A DNA stretch of 23,226 nt, taken from the NCBI GenBank assembly GCA_040326155.1, contig JBEQLE010000071.1, positions 1 through 23,226 of the forward strand, read 5' to 3'. A program made the translations under genes and the position numbers. Below are positions 7,501 to 23,226 of the stretch, piece by piece (position 1 is the stretch's first letter; every line of letters begins with the position of its first letter). Origin of the DNA: Leptospirales bacterium. GTDB lineage: Bacteria > Spirochaetota > Leptospiria > Turneriellales > JAOUFE01. The notes beneath the pieces were generated by a model that was not told where the DNA came from, did not search any database, and saw only the letters and a list, made by a program, of their open reading frames with translations.

Positions 7501-10500
7501 ACTTGTAAAAAACAGTGACGAAACTTATTTGCTAAAAACTCTTTCTGGCTCAGAATACAGATTCGATAAAAATGGTTTACTTGTTTCTAAAGCCGATGAC
7601 TATGGAACGACGTTACGTTTTCAGTATTCTGAACCGGTACAAATTGGAGCGGGCGAAATAAAGCCTCTAAAAAGTGTGCAAGATCGTTTCAATAGAAAAC
7701 TGTCGTTCGAGTACACGGGGCGAAATATTACATCCATAACCGATTTTACAGGGCGGATTATTCGTTACACATACAACGATGGCTTTTTAAGTTCGCATAC
7801 CGACGCTATGGGGTTTTCCATAGCGTATGAATATGACGTTGAAAACATGATCGTTACCAAAGTGGTCGACCGAAACGGAGGCGAGAAAAAATACGAATAT
7901 GAAAACATCAGCGATACGCCAAGGGTGGTCAAAGAGACAGACCCTCGGGGCAATACATGGCAGTTTGATTTTGACCCCGATGCGAAAACAACAGAAATAA
8001 CAGACCGGCGCGGTTTTACCACAACATATTATTCTAACGAGGCGGGTTCTACAACGAAAATTGTTCATCCAGATGACAGCTCTATAGAGTATTTTTACGA
8101 CCAAAAACAAAACAGGACCGCCCAAAAAGATGAGAATGGGAACATAACTGGTTATGTTTATAACGAGCAAAACCAGGTACAAAAAATAGTACTGCCCAAC
8201 AATGGAGTTATTACGTATGCATATTATAGCAGTGGAAAAGTAAAATCGATTACCGACCCGCAAGGGGGCAAATACTCTTATACGTATAATGCACGAGGTA
8301 AAGTTTTAACCCAGAGCGGGCCTGATGGTGCCACCATGCGTTATGTTTATAACTCGACTGGACAACCGGTGAAAGTGACGAACTCTCTCGGGCACTCAAC
8401 AGTGATGACCTATGACCAATTTGGTTATATAGCTTCGAAGAGAGATGCTTCTGGCGCTTTGATTACGATGGAGTTTGATACACTGGGTCGGCCAATAATG
8501 ATTATTGCACCGGACACGGGAGAGATGTATTATGAATATGACCCGTTAAATCGGATCACATCTGTGATGGACCCTCTCGGTTATATTTCCAGTTTTGAAT
8601 ATTTTCCAGATGGGCAAATTTCTAAAAAAGTTCTTCCGTTAAACCGTGTTTTTACGTATGTATATGATATATCGGGAAACCTGATTCGTTTGGATGAACC
8701 GGGCGGGGTATTTGTGGAGTATGAATACGACGAAGAAGAAAATCTGGTTTCACAGTCGAAAAATGGAGTAGAAACGTTTCGCGCAGAACTCGATAGTCGT
8801 GGTCGAATCACAACATCTTTGGATGGTGGTTCCTCATATACAACAGAGTTTTTCTACGATAGAGCCGGTAATGTAATCAAACTCACAGATGCTTATGACA
8901 ACTATTACTCTTTCGTTTATAACAGTATGAACCAGTTGATTTCTGCTCAAGATCGACTCGGCAGTACGAACCATATTGAGTATGACTTAAATGGAAATAG
9001 AATCGCCTCTATCGATAAGCTAAATTCCAAAACTGAATATGTTTATGATTCGGTAAATCGTCTGGTCGAAACTGTGGACTCTCTTGGTGGGTCGATGCAG
9101 ATGCAGTACGACCTGATGGGAAATCGAAGTAGGGTGGTTGACAATAATGGCAACGTTACTACGTTCAGGTATAATAATGCAAATCGCCTTTCGAGTGTGA
9201 CCGACTCTCTTGGTGCACGAAGTAACTATTATTACGATAAAAAAGGGAATCGCGTGAAAGTGGTAGCACCCAACGGTGCAGAAACGTTAATGCAATACGA
9301 CTTGAAAAGCAGGGTAGTGGCAATTGTCGACGCTTTGGGTCAAAAAAGTGTGTTGGAGTATGACGCTGCTGATAATATCACCCATGCCAAAAATGCAAAT
9401 GGTGAACTGAGCAGTGTAAAATACGACATTCGAAACAGACCGATTTTATACCAGGACCCTCTGGGTAATAAAGTGAATTTGCAGTACGATAATTTTGACA
9501 ACATGGTTCGGGCCACAGACCCGCTGGGCAGTGTCGCGCTATTTACATATGACCAACGCAACAAATTGATCGAGACCCGAAAACCAGGCGGCGGAAAAAA
9601 TCAGTTTTCGTATGACCGGCTAGATCGTCTGCTTGAAAAAACTGACGCTCTCGGAAGAAGTACAAATTACAGTTACGACTCAGAAGGTCGATTGGCGCAG
9701 GTGAGCGACGCTTTGGGTAATTCCACTTCGTACATTTACGACGCCGAGGGGCGACTTTTGTCGTACACCAATGCAAACGACCACGTCACTTCTTACACCT
9801 ACGATTCACTCTCTCGCCTGATTCGCGAGAGCGACGCTCTAAAAAACAGTACCCGTTTTTCCTATGATGCAAACAGTAACTTACTGCAAAAATCATTGCC
9901 CGGTGGAGGAACTATCTCTTTCAGCTATGATGCCAAAAACCGCTTAGTGAAAAAAGCGACATCGGACTCCATGGTAAATACATACCAGTATGACGTTGTG
10001 GATAATCTGGTTTCTGCACAGAATGCAAATTACATAGAAAACTATTCCTACGATTTACTCAAGCGAAAGATTCATGTAAATAACATTACTCACAATAAAA
10101 GTATAGAATACCAATACGACGCTGTAGGTCGAAGAACTTACATGAGCTCACCAAAAGCTCCGGGCAGTGGAACCGAGTACCGATACGACAGAGGCGGAAA
10201 TCTGGTCGGAGTCCGTTTCCCGGAAACTCCCAACCGGGAGAATCTGCTGCAATACGACGCGGCAGGCCGAGTGGCCAACAAGCAGTATGTGAACGGTGTC
10301 GTAAAAAACATCGCTTACGACGCCGACGGAAATATAACACGCCAAAGCGAAACTTTAAACGGAACTTCAATAGTCGATTTTGCCTACGAATATGACAAAG
10401 TGGGAAACCCGATTCGGATAACCAGAGAAACCGGCAGAACAGACGAGATGACTTACGACAAACTGAACCGAATGACCGAGTTTGTGCGCGGGGCATACTC

Positions 10501-12250
10501 CATGCAATACAGATACGACGCCGTCGGCAATCGCACCCAAGAGAGCGGTTACCTTCCAGCGAATTTACAGACCGGCGTGAGTGGTGGACCAGTTTCCATC
10601 GCATCGAATTACAACGAACTGAACCAACTGGTAAGTCGTGGCAGCATCACTTACGATTATGATTCCAAAGGAAACCGGGTAACAAAAACCGATTCGAGAA
10701 TCAACGGTCCGATTGGGGCAATAACCAGTTACACATATAATGTCGAAAACCAACTGACGAACGTAAAACTTCCCGACGCAAAAACCTATGAATATAAGTA
10801 CGATGCACTCGACCGGCGCGTCTATAAAAAATACGCCATCGGCCCAGACACCTTCGCCAACCATATTATTTACGACGGTCGCCAAACATTATACGAACTA
10901 AACGAAGACCAGTCGCCGCTGGCTCAGTATAATTTCTTACCGCACCCGTCTTTACCCTATGGCGAACCAGTACTCCGAAAATTCTACGGATACAAAGGCC
11001 GGGGAAGTGCAGGCGGTAAAGCTGGAAAACAGACCATCGGCAATACCCACTACTACCACACCGACGCGCTCGGCACAACCTGGAAAATGACAAACCACCA
11101 AGGGCAGGAGATATTCGAATACGACTATGACCCATGGGGGAATATTCTTAACAACGAATTCACCGAGCCATACAATCGCTTTTTATTCACCGGCAAAGAG
11201 TTTGATTACGAAACACAACTGACCCACATTGACGCTCGTGAGTACGACATGCAGAGCGCAACCTGGATACAAAAAGACCCATACAATCTGGCAACGTTGC
11301 AGTTACCGCAACAGGCGCAGGGGCTGGTTGCCATGCTAGGTCAAAAACCGCAGGGCATGCTGATGAACCCGGCAGATCTGAATGGGTACTCATATGTGTA
11401 TAATAACCCGGCTCGGTATAAAGATGATACGGGGCACTTTATTTTTACGGCGATGGCGATCGGTGCAGGAGTGGGTCTTCTAATTGAGGGAATAAGTCAG
11501 CTGCTTAGTGATAAGGAGATGTCTGTAGGTGAAAGACTGACTCGACTGGGTTTTTCTATGGTAGCAGGTGGATTGTCTGGTGTTGGTGGGTTCTGGGCTA
11601 GTGCTTATTTGAGAACAGGTTTCAACTTGCTTGCAGGTGCTACTATTAATTCTGGAATTTCAGCAGGTGTAACGACAATTAATAATAATCTATATGACGA
11701 GAATAATAATATATATCTTTCTGGACTTTTTGGTTTTGCTGGTGGGTTACTGGGTAATTATGGTGGTTCAAAAGTTGCAAACTGGTTAACGAAGACCAAG
11801 TTGCCTATTCCCAGACGATTTTTCAGTCCATACGTAAATTCAGCCGGAAGTTCTTACACAACGTATATGCAAAGTTTAACTGCCAAATCTCATGCAGTGG
11901 CACTCGCCACTGCTGAAGCATTTACTAATTTCTCTACGAATGGTTTAAACCCTTCTTTTTGGTCGAATATGCAAAATAAGTTTTCTGCTTTAACTCAGTC
12001 GACTTGTGCCCAACCCGAATACACCTCCGGCTGGACAACAAATTACTCGAATGTGTTTTCTAGCACAAATTCCAGTTATGAGAATAGCCAGCGAGAGCAG
12101 AGCCAAAGAGAACTTTCCTGGTCGTATGGTTTACAGTGGGACTACTTGGCTGATGGCAGACGAACTTTCTCTGTGGACCCGTCTACCATCGTGACATTGT
12201 ACACGAATCCACAAATAGAGATTGTGAATACGTACCACATGGGGTATTGA
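4517..12250 (+). CDS. Subtilisin (S8) peptidase - RHS/YD-repeat fusion protein, putative exported polymorphic toxin
   Basis: N-terminal hydrophobic helix; S8 triad motifs VAILDSG, NGHGTAVAGII, VTGSSGATAVVTG; DUF6531-like DGNPV...FGKAWFFNYD; many YD repeats; RHS core YYHTDALG..YDYDPWG..FTGKEFD..AREYD..QKDP..YSYVYNNPARYKDDTGH; ~270-aa C-terminal domain. Confidence 0.95.
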   Translation: MRELSHGWVRARKFLKYVLFFIPIILAVGVFVNYTGIFNTSDAKDYTASLVSPEYQEKISQLCSNELSANSPHCRYLKTNASWEHRVLVILKNENVNIQNVLAKIIADYKIQEGDGNKKNTTGTISYTLLDSTHAFFEVSTQNDKNRLQKLLRQYKDTIESVTDRKIQITAEPQPLSVKKPKLFSPKDPYMDRQWALAAIEAESAWGEMTNTTNRNVIVAILDSGVDYNHPELTNQIVSGYDFVRNDNIAEDENGHGTAVAGIIAAQTNKKGITGVNPLVKIMPLKVIDKNGNGSLTNLLLAIQYAVDNGASVINISAGFIEKNNDGPLVEVVQSYINYALNKGVVVVASAGNIPVQADELVLPAIADDIISVSSLDRNGEPVLRSNNFQPGLYAPGVSILTLNNLGVQNRLIDVFKTNNLFGYVTGSSGATAVVTGIVSLLVTELPGLSPLYYKAVLENSAQNRNANAYEAMLLLKKSLNPEDSDNKSNAQEPSGAEEMNTQISTQFCAPGHYELISSCTQSTYVDCSKWCQYPNVKSYPYPGCKGGSEYDFDSASGTNTDHCWKPVIVVDAALLEKAIREKELAIALALLVLYSSNLTDDDLQQLIKTVEKIYGISAEQTAGMDRAELLETLVTDVSTEMVDQDYPTLTQNERTLLAEAVTSASLYEIKQRDYNLPQSAFCDGNPVRMSSCTKETTALDLSIPVLSDRFEIKRKHSTFYKDNYSFGKAWFFNYDTRIILGVKKDAEKLLALGRTILNSTTERLETLKAAQADIQSYIDEIDGIYNRLNNNMDLIGSLWSEAESIRQHAKAERNLAITKRNETKTQADKAITHATNSNANGANAVISKARKAIDDANFYMNHAKNNYTKIVNRINTASNSTPDATELLSRLEEIRSSMNGKKATMDTLVNTMQTHVDELSAEVETLQTDAEIARVHMENNRYAVDPENAETQQFGNDYIKWIDENGNNHFFVVNENGTVEPVRAQNYNGINGLELVKNSDETYLLKTLSGSEYRFDKNGLLVSKADDYGTTLRFQYSEPVQIGAGEIKPLKSVQDRFNRKLSFEYTGRNITSITDFTGRIIRYTYNDGFLSSHTDAMGFSIAYEYDVENMIVTKVVDRNGGEKKYEYENISDTPRVVKETDPRGNTWQFDFDPDAKTTEITDRRGFTTTYYSNEAGSTTKIVHPDDSSIEYFYDQKQNRTAQKDENGNITGYVYNEQNQVQKIVLPNNGVITYAYYSSGKVKSITDPQGGKYSYTYNARGKVLTQSGPDGATMRYVYNSTGQPVKVTNSLGHSTVMTYDQFGYIASKRDASGALITMEFDTLGRPIMIIAPDTGEMYYEYDPLNRITSVMDPLGYISSFEYFPDGQISKKVLPLNRVFTYVYDISGNLIRLDEPGGVFVEYEYDEEENLVSQSKNGVETFRAELDSRGRITTSLDGGSSYTTEFFYDRAGNVIKLTDAYDNYYSFVYNSMNQLISAQDRLGSTNHIEYDLNGNRIASIDKLNSKTEYVYDSVNRLVETVDSLGGSMQMQYDLMGNRSRVVDNNGNVTTFRYNNANRLSSVTDSLGARSNYYYDKKGNRVKVVAPNGAETLMQYDLKSRVVAIVDALGQKSVLEYDAADNITHAKNANGELSSVKYDIRNRPILYQDPLGNKVNLQYDNFDNMVRATDPLGSVALFTYDQRNKLIETRKPGGGKNQFSYDRLDRLLEKTDALGRSTNYSYDSEGRLAQVSDALGNSTSYIYDAEGRLLSYTNANDHVTSYTYDSLSRLIRESDALKNSTRFSYDANSNLLQKSLPGGGTISFSYDAKNRLVKKATSDSMVNTYQYDVVDNLVSAQNANYIENYSYDLLKRKIHVNNITHNKSIEYQYDAVGRRTYMSSPKAPGSGTEYRYDRGGNLVGVRFPETPNRENLLQYDAAGRVANKQYVNGVVKNIAYDADGNITRQSETLNGTSIVDFAYEYDKVGNPIRITRETGRTDEMTYDKLNRMTEFVRGAYSMQYRYDAVGNRTQESGYLPANLQTGVSGGPVSIASNYNELNQLVSRGSITYDYDSKGNRVTKTDSRINGPIGAITSYTYNVENQLTNVKLPDAKTYEYKYDALDRRVYKKYAIGPDTFANHIIYDGRQTLYELNEDQSPLAQYNFLPHPSLPYGEPVLRKFYGYKGRGSAGGKAGKQTIGNTHYYHTDALGTTWKMTNHQGQEIFEYDYDPWGNILNNEFTEPYNRFLFTGKEFDYETQLTHIDAREYDMQSATWIQKDPYNLATLQLPQQAQGLVAMLGQKPQGMLMNPADLNGYSYVYNNPARYKDDTGHFIFTAMAIGAGVGLLIEGISQLLSDKEMSVGERLTRLGFSMVAGGLSGVGGFWASAYLRTGFNLLAGATINSGISAGVTTINNNLYDENNNIYLSGLFGFAGGLLGNYGGSKVANWLTKTKLPIPRRFFSPYVNSAGSSYTTYMQSLTAKSHAVALATAEAFTNFSTNGLNPSFWSNMQNKFSALTQSTCAQPEYTSGWTTNYSNVFSSTNSSYENSQREQSQRELSWSYGLQWDYLADGRRTFSVDPSTIVTLYTNPQIEIVNTYHMGY

Positions 12251-12354
12251 TGGCCTAACATTTTATTGGCAATTTGTCTAAACTATTTTGTTTGGACTTT
12301 TGTAGAATATTAAGAGTTGTTTGTTAGACACTAGAGGAAATAGGAAGGTTATCT

Positions 12355-12876
12355 ATGGTTAGAGAAAGTTATAAAGTTCAGCCGGGCTTGTATCGATTAT
12401 TCGTAGGAATACTGATAATAGTTCTTTTCTTAGTGATTATAACACTTCTGAGTGCTATAAAGAATTCCTTTAACCTGGGTAATGATAGTTTTAGTGTTTT
12501 TCTGTTTACATTTGTGACCATTTCTATGTTCATTTTTTTAAGAAAGTTTCCTAGAGAGATCAAATTGGTAGAAAATGTGTTGTATATACATTACTACTTT
12601 CGTAAAGATGTGGAAAAGTCATGTGATTCGATAACAAAAATTTTAGCTGGCGGGAAGGGTGCTCCATTCGCTGAAATTACAATACACTTTAATGATGGGT
12701 TATCGATAAAACTACTTGAGAGTAGTGAAAACTTTATTCCATTTCTTCTGGCTTTGATGAAGCAGGTAGAGCAGTGTGAAACTGCCAATTTCGAAAAGTT
12801 GCATAAGAGAACATATATTGAGCCTAACGATATCGCCTTGCTCATGAAAGAAGTTAAGCGAATACAGGAACCATAG
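12355..12876 (+). CDS. 2-TM membrane protein with soluble C-terminal domain; putative immunity protein A (module 1)
   Basis: Directly downstream of RHS; two hydrophobic helices then a beta-rich domain; clear paralog at 21626-22156 (IHYYFRKD, LLESS.FIPF, DIAL.MKEV). Immunity role inferred from position. Confidence 0.75.
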   Translation: MVRESYKVQPGLYRLFVGILIIVLFLVIITLLSAIKNSFNLGNDSFSVFLFTFVTISMFIFLRKFPREIKLVENVLYIHYYFRKDVEKSCDSITKILAGGKGAPFAEITIHFNDGLSIKLLESSENFIPFLLALMKQVEQCETANFEKLHKRTYIEPNDIALLMKEVKRIQEP

Positions 12877-12896
12877 ATCTACAACTGTACTTTGTT

Positions 12897-13226
12897 ATGC
12901 AGGAAATAGTCAATTTTATAATCACAATTATTGTTTTTCTTCTGTATATCGCTATCGGTCTAGCTGTTCCACTTATTTTCGTTGTGCTCTTGGTTGGTTA
13001 TCCATTGCGTATAATTCATTTTTCAAATAGAAGTAGATCTTGGAATAGGTGTGCAAAAACTCTTTGGGTATTAGCAATGAATACGTTATTCATATTACCC
13101 TGTTCTATTTACATTGAAGAAATATTACAGCTACACGGATTAATTGTAATCGTTATAGCGTCTATCTGTATGGTTTTTTTTACGTTTTCACTATTGATTT
13201 TGTCTGAAGATGGGAAGCATTTTTAA
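12897..13226 (+). CDS. Small multi-TM membrane protein; putative immunity/accessory protein B (module 1)
   Basis: 109 aa, 3-4 hydrophobic segments; colinear paralog at 22177-22506 (YPLRII.FSNRSR, VLAMNT). Confidence 0.75.
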   Translation: MQEIVNFIITIIVFLLYIAIGLAVPLIFVVLLVGYPLRIIHFSNRSRSWNRCAKTLWVLAMNTLFILPCSIYIEEILQLHGLIVIVIASICMVFFTFSLLILSEDGKHF

Positions 13227-13235
13227 GTGTTAGAT

Positions 13236-13380
13236 AATCTGTTTTCTACCACAAATACCAGATATACTAACAGCCTTCGAGAACAAAGCCAAAGAGAACT
13301 TTCCTGGTCGTATGGTTTACAATGGGATTACTTGGCTGATGGTAGACGAACTTTTTCGGTGGACTCGTCTACTATTGTTA
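13236..13380 (+). pseudogene. Relic third copy of the RHS C-terminal conserved tail
   Basis: Ungapped match to 12050-12194 (21 mismatches in 145 nt, hand count); translates NLFSTTNTRYTNSLREQSQRELSWSYGLQWDYLADGRRTFSVDSSTIV. Confidence 0.92.
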
Positions 13381-13618
13381 TAATTTAATCAGAAGTTTTG
13401 AGACTACCTGAGTCAGCCAGGCGAGCACCAAACTAACCTCAAGTTTCGTACGAGCTTGGCGGTTAAACTCAGGTAGTCTCAAAATGTGGTTGAGCATCTA
13501 CGAAAAAACAATTGATCTAATGTCTCTATAAACGTAAAGATCATTTTGGTGTATAATATGATGCGAAACCCGCAGGCGAGAGCAGTCGCGCCTGAGCAGA
13601 TCAAAATTTGTTTTGCGC
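13377..13618 (+). repeat. Long palindromic attC-like element, copy 1 (left end truncated)
   Basis: Homologous to 16051-16244; internal perfect 18-bp IR TTTTGAGACTACCTGAGT/ACTCAGGTAGTCTCAAAA (13396-13413/13467-13484); ends GTTTTGCGC; precedes a single ORF. Confidence 0.7.
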
Positions 13619-13692
13619 AGTACCTCGACAATGATAAAATTAGAACAAGAAATGTATTATGATATATTAACCTTAGGGAGAAGGATTTATTT

Positions 13693-14430
13693 ATGGGAAT
13701 AGCAGAGATTAGCAGTTATGTTACTATATTTATGGTTCCTTTTGCCATTGGAACTTTTATTTATGCCGTAATCGAAGGTAAAAAGGCAACCGCTGAATAT
13801 AAAAAGGCGAATACTGAATATAAAGAAGCGATGATAAAATCAAAAAGCGTAGATGAGCTTATTGACGAATATGCAAAACTTGTAGCCGAATATAAAGGAA
13901 GAATACTTAGTTGGGCAGATACTGTAAATGAGTTGGCAAAACAAATTGAAACTGAAGAAGAACAAATTTGTATGGCAATGGACACACTATCCTATGGAAT
14001 TTTTTCTGCGCCAGAAGCATATAAACAATTTTGGGTAAACTTATTGACGAAAGCCGCAAGTGAAATGCCCATTGAAATCATAACTTTCAATGACCAAGCA
14101 CAGGAACAGTTGTTTGAAGAGCAGTATGGAAGAAAAAGGGAAGGTAGTTCGAGTGATGAAATCAATAAAGGTGTACAAAACCATCACGCTTGCATTAAAA
14201 CCTTAATTGAGCAAGGACAAAATACAGTAAATATTGCATATGCCCCATACTTTTCCATGCATCTATTCATTTTTAAAGCTAACAAAGTTGCACTATTTAC
14301 AATACAAGAATTTCATGAAGATGGGAAAGTGGATTCACATACTATAAAAACTCAAGATGACAAACTTATTAAAATATGCCGAGAGTCATTTAGAAAAATG
14401 CAGAAAATTTCTGCCTCAGATGTTAAATAA
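13693..14430 (+). CDS. Hypothetical protein: N-terminal TM helix + coiled coil + possible PLD-like fold domain without HKD motif
   Basis: Strong RBS (GGAGAAGG); hydrophobic residues ~9-27; C-terminal pattern IEIITFN...MHLFIF..KVALFTI...TIKTQDDKLIKICRESF recalls TrmB-C/DUF5919-like PLD folds (inference). Confidence 0.6.
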   Translation: MGIAEISSYVTIFMVPFAIGTFIYAVIEGKKATAEYKKANTEYKEAMIKSKSVDELIDEYAKLVAEYKGRILSWADTVNELAKQIETEEEQICMAMDTLSYGIFSAPEAYKQFWVNLLTKAASEMPIEIITFNDQAQEQLFEEQYGRKREGSSSDEINKGVQNHHACIKTLIEQGQNTVNIAYAPYFSMHLFIFKANKVALFTIQEFHEDGKVDSHTIKTQDDKLIKICRESFRKMQKISASDVK

Positions 14431-14472
14431 TTAGTAAAATCGATTACGTAAATGTAAAAGAAAAGCACGAAT

Positions 14473-14826
14473 TCAAATATCTAAAATTTCATTAATAATA
14501 TTACGAACTTTTATTTTTTTGGGGGCATCAGGCATCTCATTAAGCTTCCGAATTATTATCAAATCATCATCCGATGTCTTCAGATCGTCATCGCATTCTT
14601 TCAAAGTCATTGGACCGTTGCCAGTTAGTAGCCAGTCGATAGATAAATTATAAGTATCCATTAGCTTCACTAGAAAGTCAAAAGATGGAGTCGACTTGCC
14701 TGTTTCGATATGGGTTACATATGATCGGTTGAGATTCGCTTTATTGCTCATTTCAGTCTGAGAAATACCAATAGCTTTTCGGAAGTCACCAAGTCTTTCA
14801 CCTATTGTGTTAATTTTCGGTTCCAT
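14473..14826 (-). CDS. XRE/Cro-C1 family HTH transcriptional regulator
   Basis: IGERLGDFRKAIGISQTEMSNKANLNRSYVTHIETGKSTPSFDFLVKL...LSIDWLLTGNGPM. Confidence 0.93.
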   Translation of the reverse strand: MEPKINTIGERLGDFRKAIGISQTEMSNKANLNRSYVTHIETGKSTPSFDFLVKLMDTYNLSIDWLLTGNGPMTLKECDDDLKTSDDDLIIIRKLNEMPDAPKKIKVRNIINEILDI

Positions 14827-14911
14827 AAAGTTAGATTATTCATAAATCGTCAGAATAAGTATCATTGTAAAGTACTATAACTAAAAAAAGGTACATAATA
14901 TATAAAAATAG

Positions 14912-14942
14912 TTGACAAAGCAGTGAATATTATAGATATAAT
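14912..14942 (+). promoter_or_regulatory. Candidate sigma70 promoter divergent from the XRE gene
   Basis: Consensus TTGACA (14912-14917) and TATAAT (14937-14942), 19-nt spacer, upstream of ATG 14980. Confidence 0.5.
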
Positions 14943-14979
14943 ACCTTATTAAGGCAAGGTAGGTACAAGAAGTAACAAA

Positions 14980-15222
14980 ATGGCATATACACCAGAATTT
15001 AGTATGAAAGCAAGCTCGACTTTGAGAAGAATCGCATGGGCAGTCGGAAAACCAATGACAAAAACAGCCGAGGATATAATGGATTTTCTACCTCAAATAA
15101 TTGACAAAAAGATAGTTTGCAAGAGGTGTCGTGATAAAACTAAGTGTAATGATTGTGTTTTTTATGGTAGAGTAAATAAAAAGAATGCATATTTAATAAA
15201 ATCAATTATCAGAGATTTATAG
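14980..15222 (+). CDS. Small protein, RHH-like N-terminus + CxxC-x5-CxxC zinc-binding C-terminus (copy 1)
   Basis: MAYTPEFSMKASSTLRRIAWAVGKPMTK...VCKRCRDKTKCNDCVF; paralog at 17183-17386(-). Confidence 0.75.
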   Translation: MAYTPEFSMKASSTLRRIAWAVGKPMTKTAEDIMDFLPQIIDKKIVCKRCRDKTKCNDCVFYGRVNKKNAYLIKSIIRDL

Positions 15223-15226
15223 ATTA

Positions 15227-16006
15227 ATGGAAATAATAAACCCCTTTGAAGAAGATCTAGACAAACCGGTGTTTAGTACAACACCGGTTTTTGAGGTTAG
15301 AAATAGAAAAACAAAATTGATAGCTTCTGGAAATTACTTTGATATTGATGGGCGGATTTTATTTGTGACTGCAGGTCATGTATTTACCAATCATGGAAAA
15401 AATGGTTTATTTGTAGCAAATAATAAATCTGAAAAAATATATTTAAATGAAAGCAAAAAGTATATTTTTGCAAGTCAATACGCAAAAGAGCCTGGGGGGG
15501 ATGATGATCAAATGGATATCGGAGTGATACCATTATTCAATGTTAACAAAAGTACGATTCCTCAAAATATAATTAATATTAATGATATTTACACGAAACC
15601 TGAAGTCGACATTAATTACCAAGCAGTTATGTTAGGCTTTCCATATGGCTTGAAAATAGATGAGCACCGGAAAATAATCGATTGTCCAATGTTTATATAT
15701 AACACAACCTTTGTTCACAAGCCTTCACCACAATTTACAAATGCATCATCAGACTTCAACTATTTAATAAAATATAAAAGGCGTGATATCGATCATCTTG
15801 GTAATAAGAAGACAACGCCAAAACCGCAAGGGATTTCAGGTGGAGGCCTATGGGTCAAGAATGGTAATAAGGATAAATGGAAAATTATTGGAATACCAAT
15901 CGAATACCATAATAATCATTCACAAATTTTAGTCACGAGAGCAGACCAGTTAATTAGTGGGTTTAGAAGTATTATCGCTGATTATTCAACTAATTTCGAT
16001 AATTAA
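15227..16006 (+). CDS. Trypsin-like serine protease (cytoplasmic)
   Basis: Triad motifs FVTAGHV (His), MDIGVI (Asp), GISGGGLW (Ser), plus LGFP and IIGI; no signal peptide; starts 4 nt after the upstream stop. Confidence 0.88.
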   Translation: MEIINPFEEDLDKPVFSTTPVFEVRNRKTKLIASGNYFDIDGRILFVTAGHVFTNHGKNGLFVANNKSEKIYLNESKKYIFASQYAKEPGGDDDQMDIGVIPLFNVNKSTIPQNIININDIYTKPEVDINYQAVMLGFPYGLKIDEHRKIIDCPMFIYNTTFVHKPSPQFTNASSDFNYLIKYKRRDIDHLGNKKTTPKPQGISGGGLWVKNGNKDKWKIIGIPIEYHNNHSQILVTRADQLISGFRSIIADYSTNFDN

Positions 16007-16050
16007 AGCAAATTAGTATAATACTAATCAGATGGCAAACTGTAGGTATT

Positions 16051-16244
16051 GCGCTTAACGTTATAATCTTATCTGACGTTTTGGGGCTGACTACGGAGGA
16101 AGCCCCAAAACGTAGTTGAGCATCTACGAAAAAACATTTGATCTTATGTCTCTTCAAATGTAAGTAACATTTTGAAGTAAAATAAGATGCGAAACCTGAA
16201 CGCCCGCACAGTCAGGAGTAAGCAGATCAAAATTTATTGTACGC
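16051..16244 (+). repeat. Long palindromic attC-like element, copy 2
   Basis: Starts GCGCTTAAC (RYYYAAC) 44 nt after the protease stop and ends ATTGTACGC; sub-terminal AATCTTATCTG pairs imperfectly with CAGATCAAAATT; internal perfect 13-bp IR ACGTTTTGGGGCT/AGCCCCAAAACGT (16076-16088/16101-16113). Confidence 0.72.
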
Positions 16245-16278
16245 TGGAGCAAATGAGTAAGAACGAGATTTTTTATTT

Positions 16279-17031
16279 ATGGATGAGAATACACGAAAAT
16301 ATTTATTAGAGCATCTTAGAAAAGAATATGAACTTTCGTTCGATCGGAAGGATAGTTTAAATAGAGCATTAAATATTCAGATTTTTCTATTTACAATATC
16401 AGGAACTGGTATTGCCTATATGCTCCAAAATTATCCTATTATTAATCAAAGTTCTATTCTCTATTATTATTCTATATTATTAGTTATCACCTTTTTCTTA
16501 ATTCGATCCTCGTATTATTTTATTAAAGGTATGTGGGGACATACATATTCATATATAGCAACGCCGGAACAGATAGTTAATTATGTCGATGACTTGAATC
16601 AATACAACGAAAAGGTTGATGAAGAGAAAAAGAAAAACGTTGAAACAATAACAACTGAGATGTTAATAAAATTATATGCCAAGAGTGCTACTAAAAACAT
16701 TAAAAGTAATGAACTAAAAGGCAAGCTTCATAACGCATCAATTAGAATGATTATAATCGCAAATATATTTTTAATTGTATCGTTTATTCCATACACGTTC
16801 TTAAAAAAATCGGAAAAAGTACAGATTATTAAATTATTGAACCAGGAGAGAATAATGGCTGAAGATGAACAACAAAAACCTAGCACACCGGCGGAACCAC
16901 CGAGCGAGGATACCCGAACAAAAGGTACCGAGACACAACCTGTAAAGCTACCAAAACAACCGGGAACAAGAGAAACAACCGAGAGTAATTACAAGGGGCC
17001 TCGGCCATTCACAGGAAAAAAAGACAAATAA
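16279..17031 (+). CDS. 3-TM membrane protein (Pycsar-effector/DUF5706-like topology) with Pro/charged disordered tail
   Basis: Helix YELSFDRKDSLNRAL, 2 TMs, soluble loop, NIKSNELKGKLHNAS, third TM; tail MAEDEQQKPSTPAEPP... Family assignment is inference from topology. Confidence 0.6.
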   Translation: MDENTRKYLLEHLRKEYELSFDRKDSLNRALNIQIFLFTISGTGIAYMLQNYPIINQSSILYYYSILLVITFFLIRSSYYFIKGMWGHTYSYIATPEQIVNYVDDLNQYNEKVDEEKKKNVETITTEMLIKLYAKSATKNIKSNELKGKLHNASIRMIIIANIFLIVSFIPYTFLKKSEKVQIIKLLNQERIMAEDEQQKPSTPAEPPSEDTRTKGTETQPVKLPKQPGTRETTESNYKGPRPFTGKKDK

Positions 17032-17182
17032 GATAGAGTAATTCTTCTATGTATTTTTGATGAATTGAAAATTAAGCTAGGAAACAATATATAATTGTGA
17101 CCTAGCTTGCATTATTGAACGCATTCTTTTGTTCCAATCGATTGGGCATGTTAATGTGTTAATATATTTTTGATAGTGCTAT

Positions 17183-17386
17183 TTATCTTTTCTTTCTACC
17201 AAAAAAAACACATTGCTTGGAAAAGCTTTTATCTTTACATTTTCCGCAAACCGCTTTCTTATCAACGATATGCGGTAAATATTCTAACAACTCGATTGTC
17301 GCCGTAGCCATTGGTTTACCCATTCCCCAAGCAAAATGCTTTAAAATTCCGGAATCCCTTTTCGATAATTTTTGTGTGTATGCCAT
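17183..17386 (-). CDS. Small RHH-like/CxxC protein (copy 2, one Cys lost; possibly decaying)
   Basis: MAYTQKLS...FAWGMGKPMATA...IVDKKAVCGKCKDKSFSKQCVF aligns with 14980-15222; RBS AGGAGA upstream. Confidence 0.72.
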   Translation of the reverse strand: MAYTQKLSKRDSGILKHFAWGMGKPMATATIELLEYLPHIVDKKAVCGKCKDKSFSKQCVFFGRKKR

Positions 17387-17402
17387 AATCGTTCTCCTAT
17401 GT

Positions 17403-17438
17403 TACTGTACTTATTAAATGCTTTGAATAAGTACAGTA
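17403..17438. promoter_or_regulatory. Perfect 13-bp inverted repeat upstream of the CxxC gene copy 2 (operator or hairpin)
   Basis: TACTGTACTTATT (17403-17415) / AATAAGTACAGTA (17426-17438). Confidence 0.55.
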
Positions 17439-17442
17439 TAGT

Positions 17443-17562
17443 GAGGATTATTTACCAAATGAACTCTGGCGAAAACCACCAGACTTGGAGCTTATTGAGA
17501 AGGTAAAAAAACGAGTGGAGAAGAACAAGGCTCTTTACGATAAAGGGAAACCAGTCGCTTAA
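17443..17562 (+). pseudogene. 3' fragment of an immunity-A-like gene
   Basis: Translates EDYLPNELWRKPPDLELIEKVKKRVEKNKALYDKGKPVA*, homologous to the frame ending at 22933; no start codon. Confidence 0.7.
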
Positions 17563-17862
17563 CTTCGAAACTTGTTACATTTATCGAACATAATTTCCAT
17601 AACTGTTCGTGTACTGTAGAAAAATTGAATTCTTCTTGGGAGCAATCCAATAAATACTTTACTTTCATTGATTTTAAACAAAAGTTACCACACCAAAACA
17701 CTATAAAACGCGCAGCCAGTTTTATCTTTAAAAGCGAACCAATACCGGGATGCTCGGTACCCCCCAACCCCCACCAAGGAGGGTGGCGGTTGGGGGCGTT
17801 TTTCTTTTGGTTACTTTTCTTTTGCGGAAAAGAAAAGTGACACCTCCCCGGCGGTTAGCCGG
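17446..17862 (+). repeat. ~415-bp direct repeat, copy 1 (gene 3' end + structured intergenic element)
   Basis: Colinear with 22811-23226; shared blocks GAACATAATTTCCATAAC, AATTGAATTCTTCTTGGGAGCAATCCA, GCCAGTTTTATCTTTAAAAGCGAACCAATACCGGGATGC and three terminal hairpins. Confidence 0.92.
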
Positions 17863-17906
17863 AAAATAAGTATAAATATTGTATAACGAAAATACGAAAA
17901 CGTAGT

Positions 17907-20900
17907 ATGCAAATGAAATTAAAAAACGTGGGGGGTAGGCCACAACCATGTGTGGCCGTGGGGGGCGGCTGCCACCCTTTATATGAATATGACGAAGAAG
18001 GAAATAGAATCTCCGAGACGAAAAATAACAGAGAACAATCTCGGATAGCTCTGGATAGTCGAAACAGAGTGGTTGAGGTTTTAGACGGCGGCGCAGATTA
18101 TAAAAACAGGTATGAATATGACCCGGTCGGAAATTTAATACAATTAACGAACCCGGAAAATCAATCTTATACATTAACGTATAATAATATGAGTCGCACC
18201 ATCGACGTCCAGGATACACTTGGTCATAAAGCTTATATTGAATACGACTTAAACGGAAATGTCGTAACATCCACCGATAAACTGGGCAATAAAACCGGGT
18301 TTGTATATGACACATCCAACAGAATGGTAGAGGCAAAAGACGCCTTTGAAAAATCAGTTCATGTTTTTTACGATAAACTCGGCAACAAAACTCAGGTAGT
18401 GGATAAAAATGGAAACAGAACAAATTTTAGATATAATAAAATCAACAAATTGTCGAGCGTAACCGATGCGCTGGGGGCGAGCTCCAGGTATTATTACGAC
18501 CTAAAAAGAAATATGGTAAAAACCAGAACTGCCAACGGCGCCGAAACACGAATTCAATATGATTTGAAAAACAGGGTTGTGAACGTGTTAGATGCTCTGG
18601 GGAATAAAAGTATATTGGAATATGACGCCGTAGATAATGTAACCCATATGAAAAATGCAAACGGCGAATTGAGCACAATAAAATACGACGTAAGGAATAG
18701 ACCGGTAGAGTATGTAGACCCGCTGGGCAATAATTCTAAATTCGTGTACGACAATTTCGATAATTTAATACGGGCTGTTGATCCATTGGGCAACGCATCT
18801 TTACTTACATATAACAGTCGCAACAAATTGATAGCCACCCAGAAACCGAGTGGAGCAAAAAACAAAATCGCCTATGATCTTTTAGACCATGCAACGAAAA
18901 AAACGGACGCGCTTGGGCGAAGTACGAATTACAGTTATGATAGCGAAGGACGATTGGTTCAAGTGAGCGATGCTTTGGGGAATTCCACCAGGTATAGCTA
19001 TGACGCCGAAGGCCGACTGCTTTCTTATATAGACGCAAATAACAATGGTTCAACGTATGGTTACGACGCGCTTTCACAATTGATTCGTGAAACGGACGCC
19101 TTACAAAACACAACCCGCTTCGATTATGATCCGAACGGTAATGTAACCGAAAAGCTTTTACCGGGAGGTGATCAGGTCGCATATGCCTATGATAAGAAAA
19201 ATCGTTTAACACAAAAAAGTACAAGCGACGGCTTAACGAACAAATACCAATACGATTTAGTCAACAACTTAATCTCTATTGAAAATACAAATTACAAAGA
19301 GCGATATGGTTACGATTTACTGAATCGTAAAACAGATGTAAATAATATTACTCACAATAAACAAATCGAATACAGATACGACCCGGTGGGCCGAAGAACC
19401 TACATGAGTTCCCCCAAAGCCCCCGGCAGCGGAGCCGAATACCGATACGACAAAGCGGGCCGACTGGCCGGAGTAAAGTTCCCGGAAACCCCCAATATGG
19501 AAAACCTTATTCGATACGACGCGGCGGGAAGGGTTATGCAGAAACAATACGTAAACGGCGTCGTAAAAAACATAAGTTATAACACAGACGGGAATGTCAG
19601 CCGATTAAACGAATCGTTAAATGGAAAACAAATCCTCAATTTTGCTTACGAACATGACAAAGTGGGAAATCCTGTTCGCATTACCCGAGAAAACGGTAGA
19701 GTAGACGAAATGAGCTACGACAAGTTAGACCGAATGACCAGCTTTGTGCGCGGGGGATACTCCATGCAGTATACATATGACGCAGTCGGAAATAGAATTC
19801 AAGAGACGGGTTTTGTACCGGCTAGTCCAATAACCGGTGTGAGTGGAGGAGTGGTTTCTACAAATTCACAATACAACGAACTGAACCAACTTACGCAACG
19901 CGGCAATATAAAATACAAATACGACAACAAAGGAAACCGTATAGAAAAAAATGACCCCGCAAGTTATGGACCGGTCGGAGCAATTACAACATATAATTAT
20001 AATGTGGAAAACCAACTGGTCGGGGTAACACTTCCTGATGCAAAAACATATGAATATAAATATGATTCACTGGACCGGCGTATCTACAAAAAATACGCAA
20101 TAGGAACTGACACCTTCGCCAACCATATAATCTATGATGGAAGACAGACGTTGTATGAATTAAACGAAGACGAATCGCCGCTGGCGCAATACAACTTCTT
20201 GCCGCATCCGAGTTTACCATACGGTGAACCTGTGCTGCGAAAATTCTATGGATACAAAGGACGTGGCAGTGCTGGCGGTTCCGGTGGAAAACAGACTATC
20301 GGAAATACACACTACTACCACACCGACGCAATCGGCACAACCTGGAAAATGACAAACCACCAAGGGCAAGAAATATTCGAATACGATTATGACCCTTGGG
20401 GGAATATATTGAATAGCGAATTTACCGAGCCTTACAATCGCTTTTTATATACAGGCAAAGAGTATGATTACGAAACGCAGATGACCCACATCGATGCTCG
20501 CGATTACGACATGCAAAGTGCAACTTGGATACAAAAAGACCCGTATAATTTAGCAACGTTGCAACTTCCACAGACGGCGCAAGGGCTGGTCGCCATGCTA
20601 GGGCAGAATGCGCAGGGAATGTTGTTTAGTCCTAAGGACTTGAATGCGTACTCTTATGTGTATAATAATCCGGCGCGGTATAAGGATGCGAGTGGGCATT
20701 TTGTTTTTACGGCATTTGCGATAGGTGCTGGGGTAGGTCTAATATTTGAAATTGTTCATCAGTTATTAAGTGACAAAGAAATGTCAGTAGGTGAGCGATT
20801 TTTACGTTTAGGTATATCAATGCTGGCTGGTGGATTGTCTGCTGGTGGTGGATATTTGCTAAGTGGTTTGTTTAATAAAGGCGTGAGTATATTTGCAGGT

Positions 20901-21506
20901 GGCGTTAGCAATGGCTTGTTTTCCATGGGTACCGCTGGAGTAAATAACCACCTTTTTAATGATAATAATAATGTATTGCTTTCCGGGCTTTTTGGGTTTG
21001 GTGGTGGCTTATTGGGTAGTTATACAGGTACAAGGGTTGCAAATTTGCTTGCCAAAGCCAAACTAAACGTACCAGGTCGATCTATTGGTAGTTACGGTAG
21101 TAATACTGTCTTTACAACTTATGTGCGTAGTTTAAACGCTAGGACTTTAGGTTTATCCCTTGCGAGTGCTGAATCGGCTACAAATGCAATTACGGGGTGG
21201 GTAAGTAATTCGATTTGGCCGTCTGTACATGAGAAGTTGTATAGTTTAAATGCAGCTACCTGTAACCAGTTCGAATACACTGCTGGCTGGTCCACCGACT
21301 ACTCTAATGTCTTTTCTAGTACGAATTCCGCCTATGACAATAGCGTTCGTGAAGAAAGTCAAAGACAATTGTACTGGTCTTATGGTCTGCAGTGGGACTA
21401 CATGGCAGATGGTAGACGTACTTTTTCGGTTGACCCTTCGACAATTGTCACGTTGTATACAAACCCGGAAATTGAGATTGTGAATTCTTATTATATTGGG
21501 TATTGA
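17907..21506 (+). CDS. 5'-truncated (orphan) RHS/YD-repeat protein paralogous to 4517-12250
   Basis: Homology begins at YEYDEEGN (17982, equivalent to 8720) and runs colinearly to the stop; core ends NNPARYKDASGH. The first ~25 codons are non-homologous; S8, DUF6531-like and TM parts are missing; frame is intact. Confidence 0.9.
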   Translation: MQMKLKNVGGRPQPCVAVGGGCHPLYEYDEEGNRISETKNNREQSRIALDSRNRVVEVLDGGADYKNRYEYDPVGNLIQLTNPENQSYTLTYNNMSRTIDVQDTLGHKAYIEYDLNGNVVTSTDKLGNKTGFVYDTSNRMVEAKDAFEKSVHVFYDKLGNKTQVVDKNGNRTNFRYNKINKLSSVTDALGASSRYYYDLKRNMVKTRTANGAETRIQYDLKNRVVNVLDALGNKSILEYDAVDNVTHMKNANGELSTIKYDVRNRPVEYVDPLGNNSKFVYDNFDNLIRAVDPLGNASLLTYNSRNKLIATQKPSGAKNKIAYDLLDHATKKTDALGRSTNYSYDSEGRLVQVSDALGNSTRYSYDAEGRLLSYIDANNNGSTYGYDALSQLIRETDALQNTTRFDYDPNGNVTEKLLPGGDQVAYAYDKKNRLTQKSTSDGLTNKYQYDLVNNLISIENTNYKERYGYDLLNRKTDVNNITHNKQIEYRYDPVGRRTYMSSPKAPGSGAEYRYDKAGRLAGVKFPETPNMENLIRYDAAGRVMQKQYVNGVVKNISYNTDGNVSRLNESLNGKQILNFAYEHDKVGNPVRITRENGRVDEMSYDKLDRMTSFVRGGYSMQYTYDAVGNRIQETGFVPASPITGVSGGVVSTNSQYNELNQLTQRGNIKYKYDNKGNRIEKNDPASYGPVGAITTYNYNVENQLVGVTLPDAKTYEYKYDSLDRRIYKKYAIGTDTFANHIIYDGRQTLYELNEDESPLAQYNFLPHPSLPYGEPVLRKFYGYKGRGSAGGSGGKQTIGNTHYYHTDAIGTTWKMTNHQGQEIFEYDYDPWGNILNSEFTEPYNRFLYTGKEYDYETQMTHIDARDYDMQSATWIQKDPYNLATLQLPQTAQGLVAMLGQNAQGMLFSPKDLNAYSYVYNNPARYKDASGHFVFTAFAIGAGVGLIFEIVHQLLSDKEMSVGERFLRLGISMLAGGLSAGGGYLLSGLFNKGVSIFAGGVSNGLFSMGTAGVNNHLFNDNNNVLLSGLFGFGGGLLGSYTGTRVANLLAKAKLNVPGRSIGSYGSNTVFTTYVRSLNARTLGLSLASAESATNAITGWVSNSIWPSVHEKLYSLNAATCNQFEYTAGWSTDYSNVFSSTNSAYDNSVREESQRQLYWSYGLQWDYMADGRRTFSVDPSTIVTLYTNPEIEIVNSYYIGY

Positions 21507-21625: not shown

Positions 21626-22156
21626 ATGGGGGTTAAGGTAAGTGAATTATATCAGGTTCGTCATAATACATTCTATGTATTTATTTTCCTGTTCGTATTT
21701 AATTTTATTTTTACTGCTTTTATGACATGGGGTTATATCGCTAGTTCCGTAGAGCTAGATGATTATAGTGCCGTAGTTTTTATGTTTATCAATGTAAATC
21801 TATTTATTATGTATATGTTCAGGAAATATCCAGAAAGTATAATTTTAGAAAATGAAGAGTTCCTAATCCATTTTTACTTTCGCAAAGATATCAGAATTGC
21901 AAAACATACTTTGACAAAAATGATGGCGGTAGGAAAAGGATTTAGATTTGGGGATATAAAACTATGTTTTTCTCATGGTGTGTCAATCAACTTGCTCGAA
22001 AGTAGCGATACCTTTATTCCTTTTTTCATGGGTATTTCAAAACAGACAAAACAATGTGAGATGGTCAACTTCAACAGGTTTCATAAACAAACTTTTTTAC
22101 ATCCTGACGATATTGCCTTGATTATGAAAGAGGTTAGTCGGATAACGACACCGTAG
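21626..22156 (+). CDS. 2-TM membrane protein; putative immunity protein A (module 2)
   Basis: Paralog of 12355-12876 in the same position; RBS AAGGAAG. Confidence 0.75.
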   Translation: MGVKVSELYQVRHNTFYVFIFLFVFNFIFTAFMTWGYIASSVELDDYSAVVFMFINVNLFIMYMFRKYPESIILENEEFLIHFYFRKDIRIAKHTLTKMMAVGKGFRFGDIKLCFSHGVSINLLESSDTFIPFFMGISKQTKQCEMVNFNRFHKQTFLHPDDIALIMKEVSRITTP

Positions 22157-22176
22157 CCTTATTATTGTACTTTATT

Positions 22177-22506
22177 ATGCTGGAGATTATCAATTTTATA
22201 ATTATACTTATTGTCGGTTTTTCTTATATTGCTGCTTGTCTTGCTATTCCTCTTTTTTTGGTCGCAATTTTAATTGTGTATCCATTACGTATTATTCAAT
22301 TTTCAAATAGAAGTAGGTTTTTCAATGGGGCGGCAAAAGCACTTTGTGTATTAGCCATGAATACAATACTAATATTGCCTTCTGTAATATTTTATCAAGA
22401 TATGTTACATTTTCATGAATTGATAAAATCACTTATAGGGTCAATTTATGTTGTTTTTTTTGTATTTTCATTATTCGTTTATTTTGAAGATATTAAGCAG
22501 TTTTAA
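22177..22506 (+). CDS. Small multi-TM membrane protein; putative immunity/accessory protein B (module 2)
   Basis: ATG at 22177 gives 109 aa, the same length as and colinear with 12897-13226; preferred over the TTG at 22165 in the ORF track. Confidence 0.75.
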   Translation: MLEIINFIIILIVGFSYIAACLAIPLFLVAILIVYPLRIIQFSNRSRFFNGAAKALCVLAMNTILILPSVIFYQDMLHFHELIKSLIGSIYVVFFVFSLFVYFEDIKQF

Positions 22507-22602: not shown

Positions 22603-22933
22603 ATGGGCAAAGCAGATTATTCTTGGAAAACAAATTGGCAGTGGTGTGTCGGGACTGCAATAATCGTTTTTACCATCTTAGGCTCAACAACACAATCAAA
22701 ACACTTTCTAGTTCCTAATAATTCGGTTAGACCGGACTGCAAAATATGTAGGTGATTTAATTGAAGCCCTGTTATTGCGTTTAGAAAATATTAAGGTTCT
22801 TGAAATTGATGATTACTTAAATAGCGAAGTATGGCAAAAGGAACCCGATCTGGAACTCATTGAAAAGGTCAAAAAACGAGTGGAAAAAAACAAAGCTCGC
22901 TACGATAAAGCGAAGCAGTCGGCTAACATCTAA
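22603..22933 (+). pseudogene. Broken membrane-protein gene, distant relative of immunity protein A
   Basis: ATG 22603 frame gives MGKADYSWKTNWQWCVGTAIIVFTILG (TM-like). A second frame 22712-22933 gives FLIIRLDRTAKYVGDLIEALLLRLENIKVLEIDDYLNSEVWQKEPDLELIEKVKKRVEK..., whose tail matches 17443-17562. Confidence 0.6.
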
Positions 22934-23226
22934 GCCTGCTACATTCACCGAACATAATTTCCATAACTATTCGTGTACTGCAGAAAAATTGAATTCTTCT
23001 TGGGAGCAATCCATTAAATACTTTACATCGATAGACTTTAAGCCAATAACCACCACACTAAAACACTATAAAACGCGTAGCCAGTTTTATCTTTAAAAGC
23101 GAACCAATACCGGGATGCCCGATACCCCACAACCCCCACCAGGGAGGGTGGCGGTTGTGGGCGTTTTTCTTTTGGTTACTTTTATTTTTGCGGAAAAAGA
23201 AAAGTGACACTTCCCCGGCGGTCAGC
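22811..23226 (+). repeat. ~415-bp direct repeat, copy 2 (runs to window end)
   Basis: Colinear with 17446-17859; ends CACTTCCCCGGCGGTCAGC. Confidence 0.92.

Follow-up and report, generated by a model that had tools for sequence, protein, structure and literature searches.

Membrane-active toxins borne by rearrangement hotspot (RHS) proteins and by the CdiA proteins that act in contact-dependent growth inhibition (CDI) are known, and to our knowledge few of them have been taken apart in detail. The constant parts related to delivery lie N-terminal to the variable toxic part in every described polymorphic toxin that we know of. Among the Rhs-borne toxins, the pore former Tse5-CT has a length of 149 aa and an immunity protein, Tsi5, with two predicted transmembrane (TM) regions (PMC9637101). 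The CDI ionophores (CdiA-CT of E. coli EC93 and groups 1-6; Halvorsen et al. 2024, PMC11630599) combine a polymorphic membrane-spanning helical ionophore domain with a separate, exchangeable entry-route module, and their immunity proteins are membrane proteins of about 30-60% identity that protect against the cognate toxin only. Both Tse5-CT and the CDI ionophores were shown to insert in the membrane and to dissipate its potential (PMC9637101, PMC11630599). Here, two RHS C-terminal tips (CTs), CT1 and CT2, are described from a 23,226-bp contig of a Leptospirales bacterium (JBEQLE010000071.1 of assembly GCA_040326155.1). They represent a new and very rare RHS tip family of unusual polarity, in which a variable membrane module is followed by a conserved tail at the very end, within the known RHS polymorphic-toxin scheme.

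The window, meaning the whole stretch of DNA that was analysed, is an entire contig (C140) of a 4.26-Mb genome assembly with 171 contigs and 94.7% completeness. CT1 forms the end of a full-length gene, rhsA, and CT2 the end of a 5'-truncated orphan rhs gene. Multiple RHS/YD repeats are present in both (PF05593 with E 2.4e-117 over 15 stretches in rhsA and E 6.3e-81 over 11 stretches in the orphan; TIGR01643 was also matched), and the Rhs core ends at the tip junction with a variant motif. Similar to Tse5 (RhsP1 of Pseudomonas aeruginosa), the CTs are tips of an Rhs shell with predicted helices, predicted autoproteolytic release and no enzymatic motif (PMC9637101, PMC10684867). Tse5-CT is likewise helical, with TM and amphipathic segments, and Tsi5 is an integral membrane protein with two predicted TM regions, like the product of immA, the first gene behind each tip (PMC9637101). 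Unlike Tse5, the CTs have 270 instead of 149 aa, an additional conserved polar tail and two downstream membrane open reading frames (ORFs); moreover, the genome yielded no PAAR, Hcp or TssC, and the N-terminus of RhsA consists of an anchor and a subtilase. No match of the CTs to Tse5-CT was obtained at E<=10 in the PDB sequences, where the presence of Tse5 is assumed from PMC10684867.

By analogy, the CDI ionophores appear to be the closest functional parallel. The CTs do not have their layout of an N-terminal entry domain and a C-terminal five-helix ionophore bundle on CdiA. The carrier is RHS and not CdiA, and the order is inverted, the membrane module preceding the conserved one, which occupies the extreme C-terminus. 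No match to the CDI ionophores was seen at the level of families, a comparison made with family profiles and not directly with CdiA-CT sequences. Predicted Gly-rich small-xxx-small helices and candidate membrane immunity proteins also recall the depolarising Gly-zipper toxins Tse4, EsxX and CdzC/D (PMC12169545, PMC12744356, PMC5380434), which differ in their carriers and secretion routes and for which the abstracts report no conserved C-terminal tail. A preliminary description made from the letters of this DNA had started from the premise that RHS and CDI tips are usually nucleases or deaminases, which overlooks Tse5 (PMC9637101, PMC10684867) and the CDI ionophores (PMC11630599). Its observations were confirmed and extended and its interpretation was supported in part; the term "undescribed system" proved too strong for a new family and architecture inside a known scheme.

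Divergence along the tips and selection on the tail

Gene rhsA (4517..12250, + strand, 2577 aa) ends in CT1 (11438-12250, + strand, 270 aa). The orphan (17907..21506, + strand, 1199 aa), whose similarity to rhsA starts at about residue 1398 of the latter, ends in CT2 (20700-21506, + strand, 268 aa). The NCBIfam profile TIGR03696 (Rhs_assc_core) matches residues 2204-2307 of RhsA and 828-931 of the orphan product; its ends at residues 2307 and 931 place the CT starts at 11438 and 20700, so that the positions and lengths reported previously were right. The two CTs are colinear from end to end, with 158 of 270 residues identical (59%), one 2-residue gap and a BLASTP E-value of 5e-88, and the conserved strings quoted earlier for the start and the tail are present in both.

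The divergence is distributed unevenly. The start (aa 1-45) has 34 identical and 11 different residues (76%), the middle (aa 46-189) 59 identical and 85 different (41%), and the tail (aa 190-270) 65 identical and 16 different (80%). The contrast is significant for the middle against the tail (Fisher p 7.7e-9) and against the start (p 6.6e-5); the preliminary picture of a conserved start, a diverged middle and a near-constant tail is thereby borne out, and uniform divergence is ruled out. In the middle, the proportion of non-synonymous differences per site (pN) is 0.36, and its ratio to the synonymous proportion (pS) is about 0.4. Synonymous sites are saturated along the whole length of the tips (pS 0.6-0.9), indicating that the rhsA and orphan DNA copies are old.

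The tail begins with an 18-aa junction motif, C-x2-P-x-Y-x2-G-W-[ST]-T-[DN]-Y-S-N-V-F (12005..12058, + strand), with which the conserved tail DNA begins on its left side. It is common to two types of tail, and its columns are invariant in the alignment. The remainder of tail type 1 (aa 208-270 and the stop codon; 12059..12250, + strand) is polar and rich in Trp and Tyr, with a helix followed by beta strands predicted at low confidence. Amino acid identity among the four full copies of this type amounts to 80-95%. Between CT1 and CT2, pS is 0.78 and pN 0.11 in the tail, or 0.83 and 0.09 in its last 55 codons, and no more than 75% of the DNA is identical, without any identical run longer than 12 nt. 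Low pN together with saturated pS and 75% nucleotide identity indicates that the tail was kept by selection on the protein and not by recent DNA exchange. In 6 of 6 pairs of the four full-length tails, pN/pS lies between 0.07 and 0.17. The tail is a separate conserved module under purifying selection at the protein level.

Exchange of the membrane cassette and detached tails

The left flank of the variable part is the conserved end of the RHS core (10733..11437, + strand), which runs up to the predicted autoproteolytic cut and is 91% identical in amino acids and 83% in nucleotides between rhsA and the orphan (pN 0.055). The RHS cores of the two genes are a mosaic, with identities from 33% to 100% across 30-aa windows. 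The canonical RHS cleavage motif is of the P-x4-D-P-x-G-L type; the predicted motif before both CTs, as read from the translations, is a variant, P-x4-D-D-x-G-H.

A metagenome scan yielded 381 pattern matches, of which two were confirmed, L007 (2440 bp) and L008 (3072 bp, encoding protein P0004). The core end of rhsA is 87% identical in nucleotides to both, the match stopping at window position 11456 for L008 and 11446 for L007. L008 is another 5'-truncated orphan rhs. Its DNA is 87.5% identical to rhsA over 10107-11456, has no detectable similarity over 11457-12002 and is again 87.8% identical over 12003-12248. It can be seen that a core end and a tail like those of rhsA (89% amino acid identity in the tail) surround a different Gly-rich module, which has a marginal similarity to CT1 (pairwise E 0.005) and no phmmer match. 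Behind the L008 tip, a different polytopic ORF with a length of at least 229 aa stands in place of immA and immB. As judged from these boundaries, the variable part forms a cassette, with the conserved end of the core on one side and the conserved tail on the other, as the preliminary description had proposed.

In L007, a core end identical by 87% to 10963-11446 is followed by a third Gly-rich module (E 0.03 to CT1; no phmmer match), at the end of which only the 18-aa junction motif is held in common before a different, Cys-containing tail, type 2, begins. Downstream, in this order, lie an immB-like gene, a detached type-2 tail, a second immB-like gene and a detached, intact type-1 tail. The last of these (L007 2107-2364) is an intact 85-aa ORF with its own ATG that overlaps the end of the preceding immB-like gene. 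It is 95% identical in amino acids and 92.8% in nucleotides to the CT1 tail, from which it differs by 18 synonymous and 5 non-synonymous changes (pN/pS 0.07); homology to rhsA resumes at 12014 here and at 12003 in L008. Such values suggest that this free tail was either recently displaced or is still under selection.

A detached tail is also found in the window, at 13227..13388 (+ strand, 53 codons). This decayed copy starts right after the immB1 stop, ends in a stop codon and is without the first 13 and last 16 tail residues; it is 79% identical in amino acids to CT1 aa 204-255 and 86% in nucleotides, and its pN/pS of 0.29-0.44 is above that of the intact tails. It is abutted and truncated by a dispersed genomic repeat (13389..13692) with blastn matches on 30 other contigs and at 16097-16244 of the window; a long inverted repeat was noticed near 13400-13480. 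Detached tails right behind immB-type genes thus occur once in the window and twice in L007, and in 3 of 3 cases the right-hand junction is the tail junction motif, immediately after the immB stop. The sequences point to the tail as a crossover mark that leaves relics made up of immunity genes and tails. Relics of this position fit the published sequential displacement of effectors with retention of immunity genes (PMC5361080).

With edges at 11456 and 12003, the idea of a swap by double crossover, put forward in the preliminary description, appears right at the population level. Between the two copies in the window it is unlikely, because their tail DNA is only 75% identical. Similarly, the earlier statement that conserved DNA brackets the variable part on both sides holds for rhsA against the metagenome alleles and fails for the two window copies, with their 75% tail identity and 12-nt run. 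The longest identical run in the rhsA/orphan pair, 37 nt, lies in the core at 11070, and a single crossover there would suffice to join CT2, together with its candidate immunity genes, to the full-length gene. Such a switch was reported for a Salmonella orphan (Koskiniemi 2014, as cited in PMC5361080).

The locus shares with Rhs C-terminal displacement a constant 5' core, variable 3' tips and a downstream 5'-truncated orphan with immunity genes, here candidate ones (PMC5361080, citing Jackson 2009 and Koskiniemi 2014; PMC3150448), and with sequential effector displacement the remnants of older effector 3'-ends in immunity arrays whose immunity genes are retained (PMC5361080). Unlike in these cases, the right boundary of the cassette lies inside the tip, at the conserved tail-coding segment, the displaced tail is under purifying selection, and the relics begin at one motif directly after the immB stop.

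Membrane module, downstream genes and possible modes of action

CT1 can be divided before its tail into a membrane module (aa 1-119; 11438..11794, + strand), with four predicted helices and Gly-zipper motifs, and a variable polar or amphipathic part (aa 120-189; 11795..12004, + strand). The first 45 aa of the module are conserved with CT2, and aa 46-119 and 120-189 together form the diverged middle. AlphaFold2 places helices at residues 2-23, 30-57, 60-85 and 92-119, at low predicted confidence (pLDDT). Small-xxx-small-xxx-small motifs number 13 in CT1, 16 in CT2, 9 in the L008 CT and 14 in the L007 CT, and helix 1 has a Kyte-Doolittle hydropathy of 1.9-2.2. The preliminary description had called the tips hydrophobic and helical over their length. 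This is appropriate for the first 120 aa or so, which are predicted to be helical and are rich in Gly, Ala and Ser, and not for residues 120-270, which are polar. Its proposal of a membrane-acting toxin agrees with the predicted helices, the hydropathy and the motif counts, from which the CTs look membrane-active.

Two small membrane ORFs follow each tip in the window. The candidate immunity proteins immA1 (12355..12876, + strand, 173 aa), with a soluble domain at the C-terminus behind two predicted TM helices, and immB1 (12897..13226, + strand, 109 aa), a small polytopic membrane protein, stand behind CT1. Their counterparts behind CT2 are immA2 (21626..22156, + strand, 176 aa) and immB2 (22177..22506, + strand, 109 aa, P0007), the latter counted from the ATG at 22177, while the ORF list starts at a TTG at 22165. 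Identity between the copies is 40% for immA and 56% for immB, and both genes diverge in step with the CTs. Neither immA nor immB matched a Pfam or NCBIfam family; a weak "tm_4" match (E 0.0012) was obtained for immA in the PADLOC and PHROGs search. The immB family also holds the two L007 ORFs, and among 2247 candidates its profile matched three, all from the window or L007. Tail type 1 is common to the window and L008, yet the downstream ORFs differ (immA and immB against the polytopic ORF), whereas immB-like genes follow tail type 1 in the window and tail type 2 in L007. Across the four loci, it is the hydrophobic module, and not the tail, that the downstream membrane genes follow in their variation, a pattern to be expected of a toxic module whose neutralisation takes place in the membrane.

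It is probable that these tips belong to a lineage-private RHS polymorphic toxin, in which a variable membrane module acts as an ionophore or pore and sets the immunity, while a constant tail serves a shared step; the proposal draws on sequence, structure models and analogy. The position behind the cleavage motif suggests that the tip is cargo of the RHS shell, inside which it would be cut off at the predicted P-x4-D-D-x-G-H motif. The N-terminal helical Gly-zipper module of about 190 aa would then insert in the cytoplasmic membrane of the target, most likely so in view of its composition, its predicted helices, the lack of an enzymatic signature and the membrane-protein neighbours, and would dissipate the membrane potential as an ionophore or alpha-pore. 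Its polymorphism would fix immunity specificity, and the two small membrane proteins after each tip would confer immunity from within the membrane. The junction motif and the polar, aromatic-rich tail of about 80 aa would perform a step common to all alleles, a role assigned by analogy with the exchangeable entry-route module of the CDI ionophores. Docking to a conserved component of the target cell or to the membrane interface is preferred for this step, because the tail is rich in Trp and Tyr; as a second choice, the tail may keep the hydrophobic cargo soluble in the RHS shell or lead it out. The presence of two tail types behind one RHS core (87% nucleotide identity) speaks weakly against a role tied strictly to one shell. 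Within the population, the membrane module would be swapped as a cassette between core end and tail, with displaced tails remaining as relics behind the immunity genes.

Several observations weigh against this proposal. The Kyte-Doolittle threshold of >=1.4 is passed by helix 1 only. The AlphaFold2 models have a mean pLDDT of 42.4 for CT1 (4-row alignment) and 46.6 for the tail (5 rows), so that helices and strands are indicative only and neither model is good enough for a fold search. Family, protein and PDB searches with the CTs gave no homologue whose function is known. The profiles PF05488, PF05638 and PF05943 (PAAR, Hcp, TssC) gave no hit in the 94.7%-complete genome. The orphan is without an export part and may be silent, and the comparison rests on four alleles from three contigs, two of which are short metagenome fragments.

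A tail shared by tips with unrelated membrane modules and unrelated immunity genes also allows a bolder view. The tail might be a portable C-terminal module for targeting, entry or exit from the shell, joinable to unrelated membrane toxins, which would amount to an inverted polarity with the variable toxic part first and the conserved delivery part last; the free tail of L007 would perhaps be expressed as a decoy, giving receptor-level cross-protection against all toxins with such a tail. This view is rather unlikely to be correct as a whole. If the tail is a targeting or release element, it would provide a compact handle on how hydrophobic toxins leave the RHS shell and find the membrane, and would also explain the growth of immunity arrays.

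The lack of detected type VI secretion system (T6SS) markers keeps alive the possibility that the toxin is aimed at membranes of eukaryotic hosts or predators, or is otherwise not interbacterial, with the membrane ORFs serving self-protection or export. The unusual anchor and subtilase at the N-terminus of RhsA are compatible with such a role, as are the 10 other RHS-type genes of the genome, several of which have signal peptides and Tc/SpvB-like N-termini by eye. It is nevertheless unlikely, since polymorphic tips, co-diverging membrane ORFs, orphans and arrays of immunity genes with relics are hallmarks of interbacterial systems (PMC5361080; PMC3150448).

The usual polarity of CdiA-CTs is a variable entry part first and a toxic domain last. 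Were it followed here, the toxic or effector function would lie in the tail, and membrane entry or translocation would fall to the Gly-rich variable part, as entry does to the variable N-terminal part of the CT in the CDI ionophores and other CdiA-CTs (PMC11630599). The tail is indeed the part under strongest constraint. Such an arrangement is quite unlikely, however, because between the window and L008 the immunity-type genes differ along with the hydrophobic module and the tail stays constant, one immB family stands behind two tail types, and the tail of about 80 aa shows no family match, no confident fold and no sign of an enzyme.

As for a tail that is a DNA homology arm only, kept similar by recombination or gene conversion and without protein function, its DNA does form the right boundary of the replaced cassette in L008, and immunity genes of the window and L007 have detached tails beside them, as crossovers there would give. 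Such a mere recombination handle is very unlikely. The values for the tails of CT1 and CT2 (pS 0.78-0.83, pN 0.09-0.11, 75% nucleotide identity, 12-nt run) speak for selection on the protein, and the low pN/pS of all six full-tail pairs stands against the 0.29-0.44 of the truncated relic in the window. Finally, a non-toxic determinant of kin recognition or adhesion, the alternative named in the preliminary description and one which a polymorphic region between constant parts might bring to mind, is highly improbable, since its position behind the RHS autoproteolytic motif puts the CT inside the shell and not on the surface, each allele has dedicated membrane ORFs behind it, and in known systems discrimination resides in toxin and immunity specificity (PMC11630599).

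Distribution of the family, delivery and surroundings of the locus

In searches that took in 1.84 billion representative proteins and 241 million records from metagenomes, the CT family was seen in one genome and two metagenome fragments, and it can be regarded as a clean case of a "private" toxin. A phmmer search with CT1 against 1,835,955,588 representative proteins returned a single match, the orphan itself; the representative clustering of full-length RHS proteins at 50% identity may hide tips behind representatives with other tips. For proteins 474-2000 aa long, a search of 5.8 billion clusters left 2 out of 5707 candidates, the orphan and P0004, and for those of 148-473 aa it left 0 out of 2555. 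No match to the tail profile was present in 40 related genomes, of which 3 belong to the same family, 30 to the same order and 7 to the same class, and the RHS core end was matched in 3 of the 40 at 34-39% identity, with no close orthologue. Scanning the genomes of 185,579 species with one alignment (A2) gave 33 pattern matches and no confirmed case. With a second alignment (A1), one of 24 matches was confirmed, a 22-aa stretch of 55% identity in a Limnobacter metagenome-assembled genome (L021), which was taken as chance.

In agreement with the preliminary description, the CTs match no known family: no Pfam family was found at E<=10, including Gly-zipper and enzymatic families, and no NCBIfam family at E<=0.01. 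Neither phmmer nor profile searches of the CTs against PDB sequences gave anything significant (best MakB, E 0.16), and the tail profile had no PDB match. In the ESM Atlas, the nearest clusters to CT1 are unnamed clusters of Bacillota (score 0.92, with a recognition value of 1826 that is below the informative range). The nearest clusters bearing a family, DUF637, PT-TG and PT-VENN at 0.82-0.84, are leads only, and the tail alone had no usable match. When the hydrophobic modules of L007 and L008, the L008 downstream ORF and immA were compared by phmmer with the six-frame pieces of the genome, only the window's own copies were recovered.

RhsA consists, in order, of an N-terminal membrane anchor, Peptidase_S8 (PF00082, aa 215-467, E 4.6e-46), a coiled coil, the RHS repeats, the Rhs-associated core (aa 2204-2307) and CT1. 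No PAAR is present in RhsA, which in this respect does not conform to the PAAR/VgrG-linked Rhs effectors of the T6SS. The anchor, Peptidase_S8 and long coiled coil stand where PAAR or another known delivery domain is expected, and a literature search at the level of titles and abstracts found no description of such an anchor and subtilase N-terminus on an RHS protein. The N-terminal region (4517-7400) also contains a Cys-rich stretch, and its Peptidase_S8 reaches 174.6 bits to the mycosin of the type VII secretion system, below the cut-off of that profile.

Upstream of the orphan, a dispersed leader repeat (17442..17990, + strand) takes in about 300 nt before the gene and provides, in its last 120 nt or so, the ATG and about the first 22 codons. 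The idea that the orphan leader is an ancestral RHS N-terminus was rejected, the leader being a dispersed repeat. It is hairpin-rich and has blastn matches on 17 other contigs, often at contig ends. It also heads the L008 orphan (92% nucleotide identity, L008 99-296), at a different point of core truncation, and two more 5'-truncated toxin-like frames on contigs C34 and C151. A second copy (22807..23226, + strand), 76-87% identical to 17442-17859, runs into the end of the contig, and for this reason a further orphan cassette probably follows.

The 10 further RHS-type genes, of up to about 2600 aa, are located on contigs C83, C125, C150, C126, C124, C103, C47, C7 and C25. By eye, signal peptides and SpvB/Tc-like N-termini can be made out in several of them and hydrophobic tips rich in Gly and Ala in at least six; no relationship of any of them to CT1 or CT2 is detectable.

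The two rhs modules are separated by an insert of low GC content (13693-17400, 32-35%). Its genes are a 245-aa ORF that starts with a TM helix, a divergent helix-turn-helix (HTH) repressor (14473-14826, - strand), ORFs of 259 and 250 aa, and two small Cys-rich ORFs (14980-15222, + strand; 17183-17386, - strand) that look like inverted paralogues by eye. PADLOC and PHROGs searches of the insert returned only the HTH protein and two weak PHROGs of unknown function. In the window, promoter-like sites were not above shuffled sequences (47 against 41 +/- 6.6), no Rfam family was matched, and terminator-like sites numbered 11 against 7.4 +/- 2.8 in shuffles. The genes upstream of rhsA encode a LysR regulator (49-918), a DUF2237 protein (944-1312, - strand), a GAF/HD-GYP-type protein (1354-2493, - strand), a weak PilZ match (2581-3228, - strand) and a class-3 lipase (3286-4212, - strand) that is divergent from rhsA.

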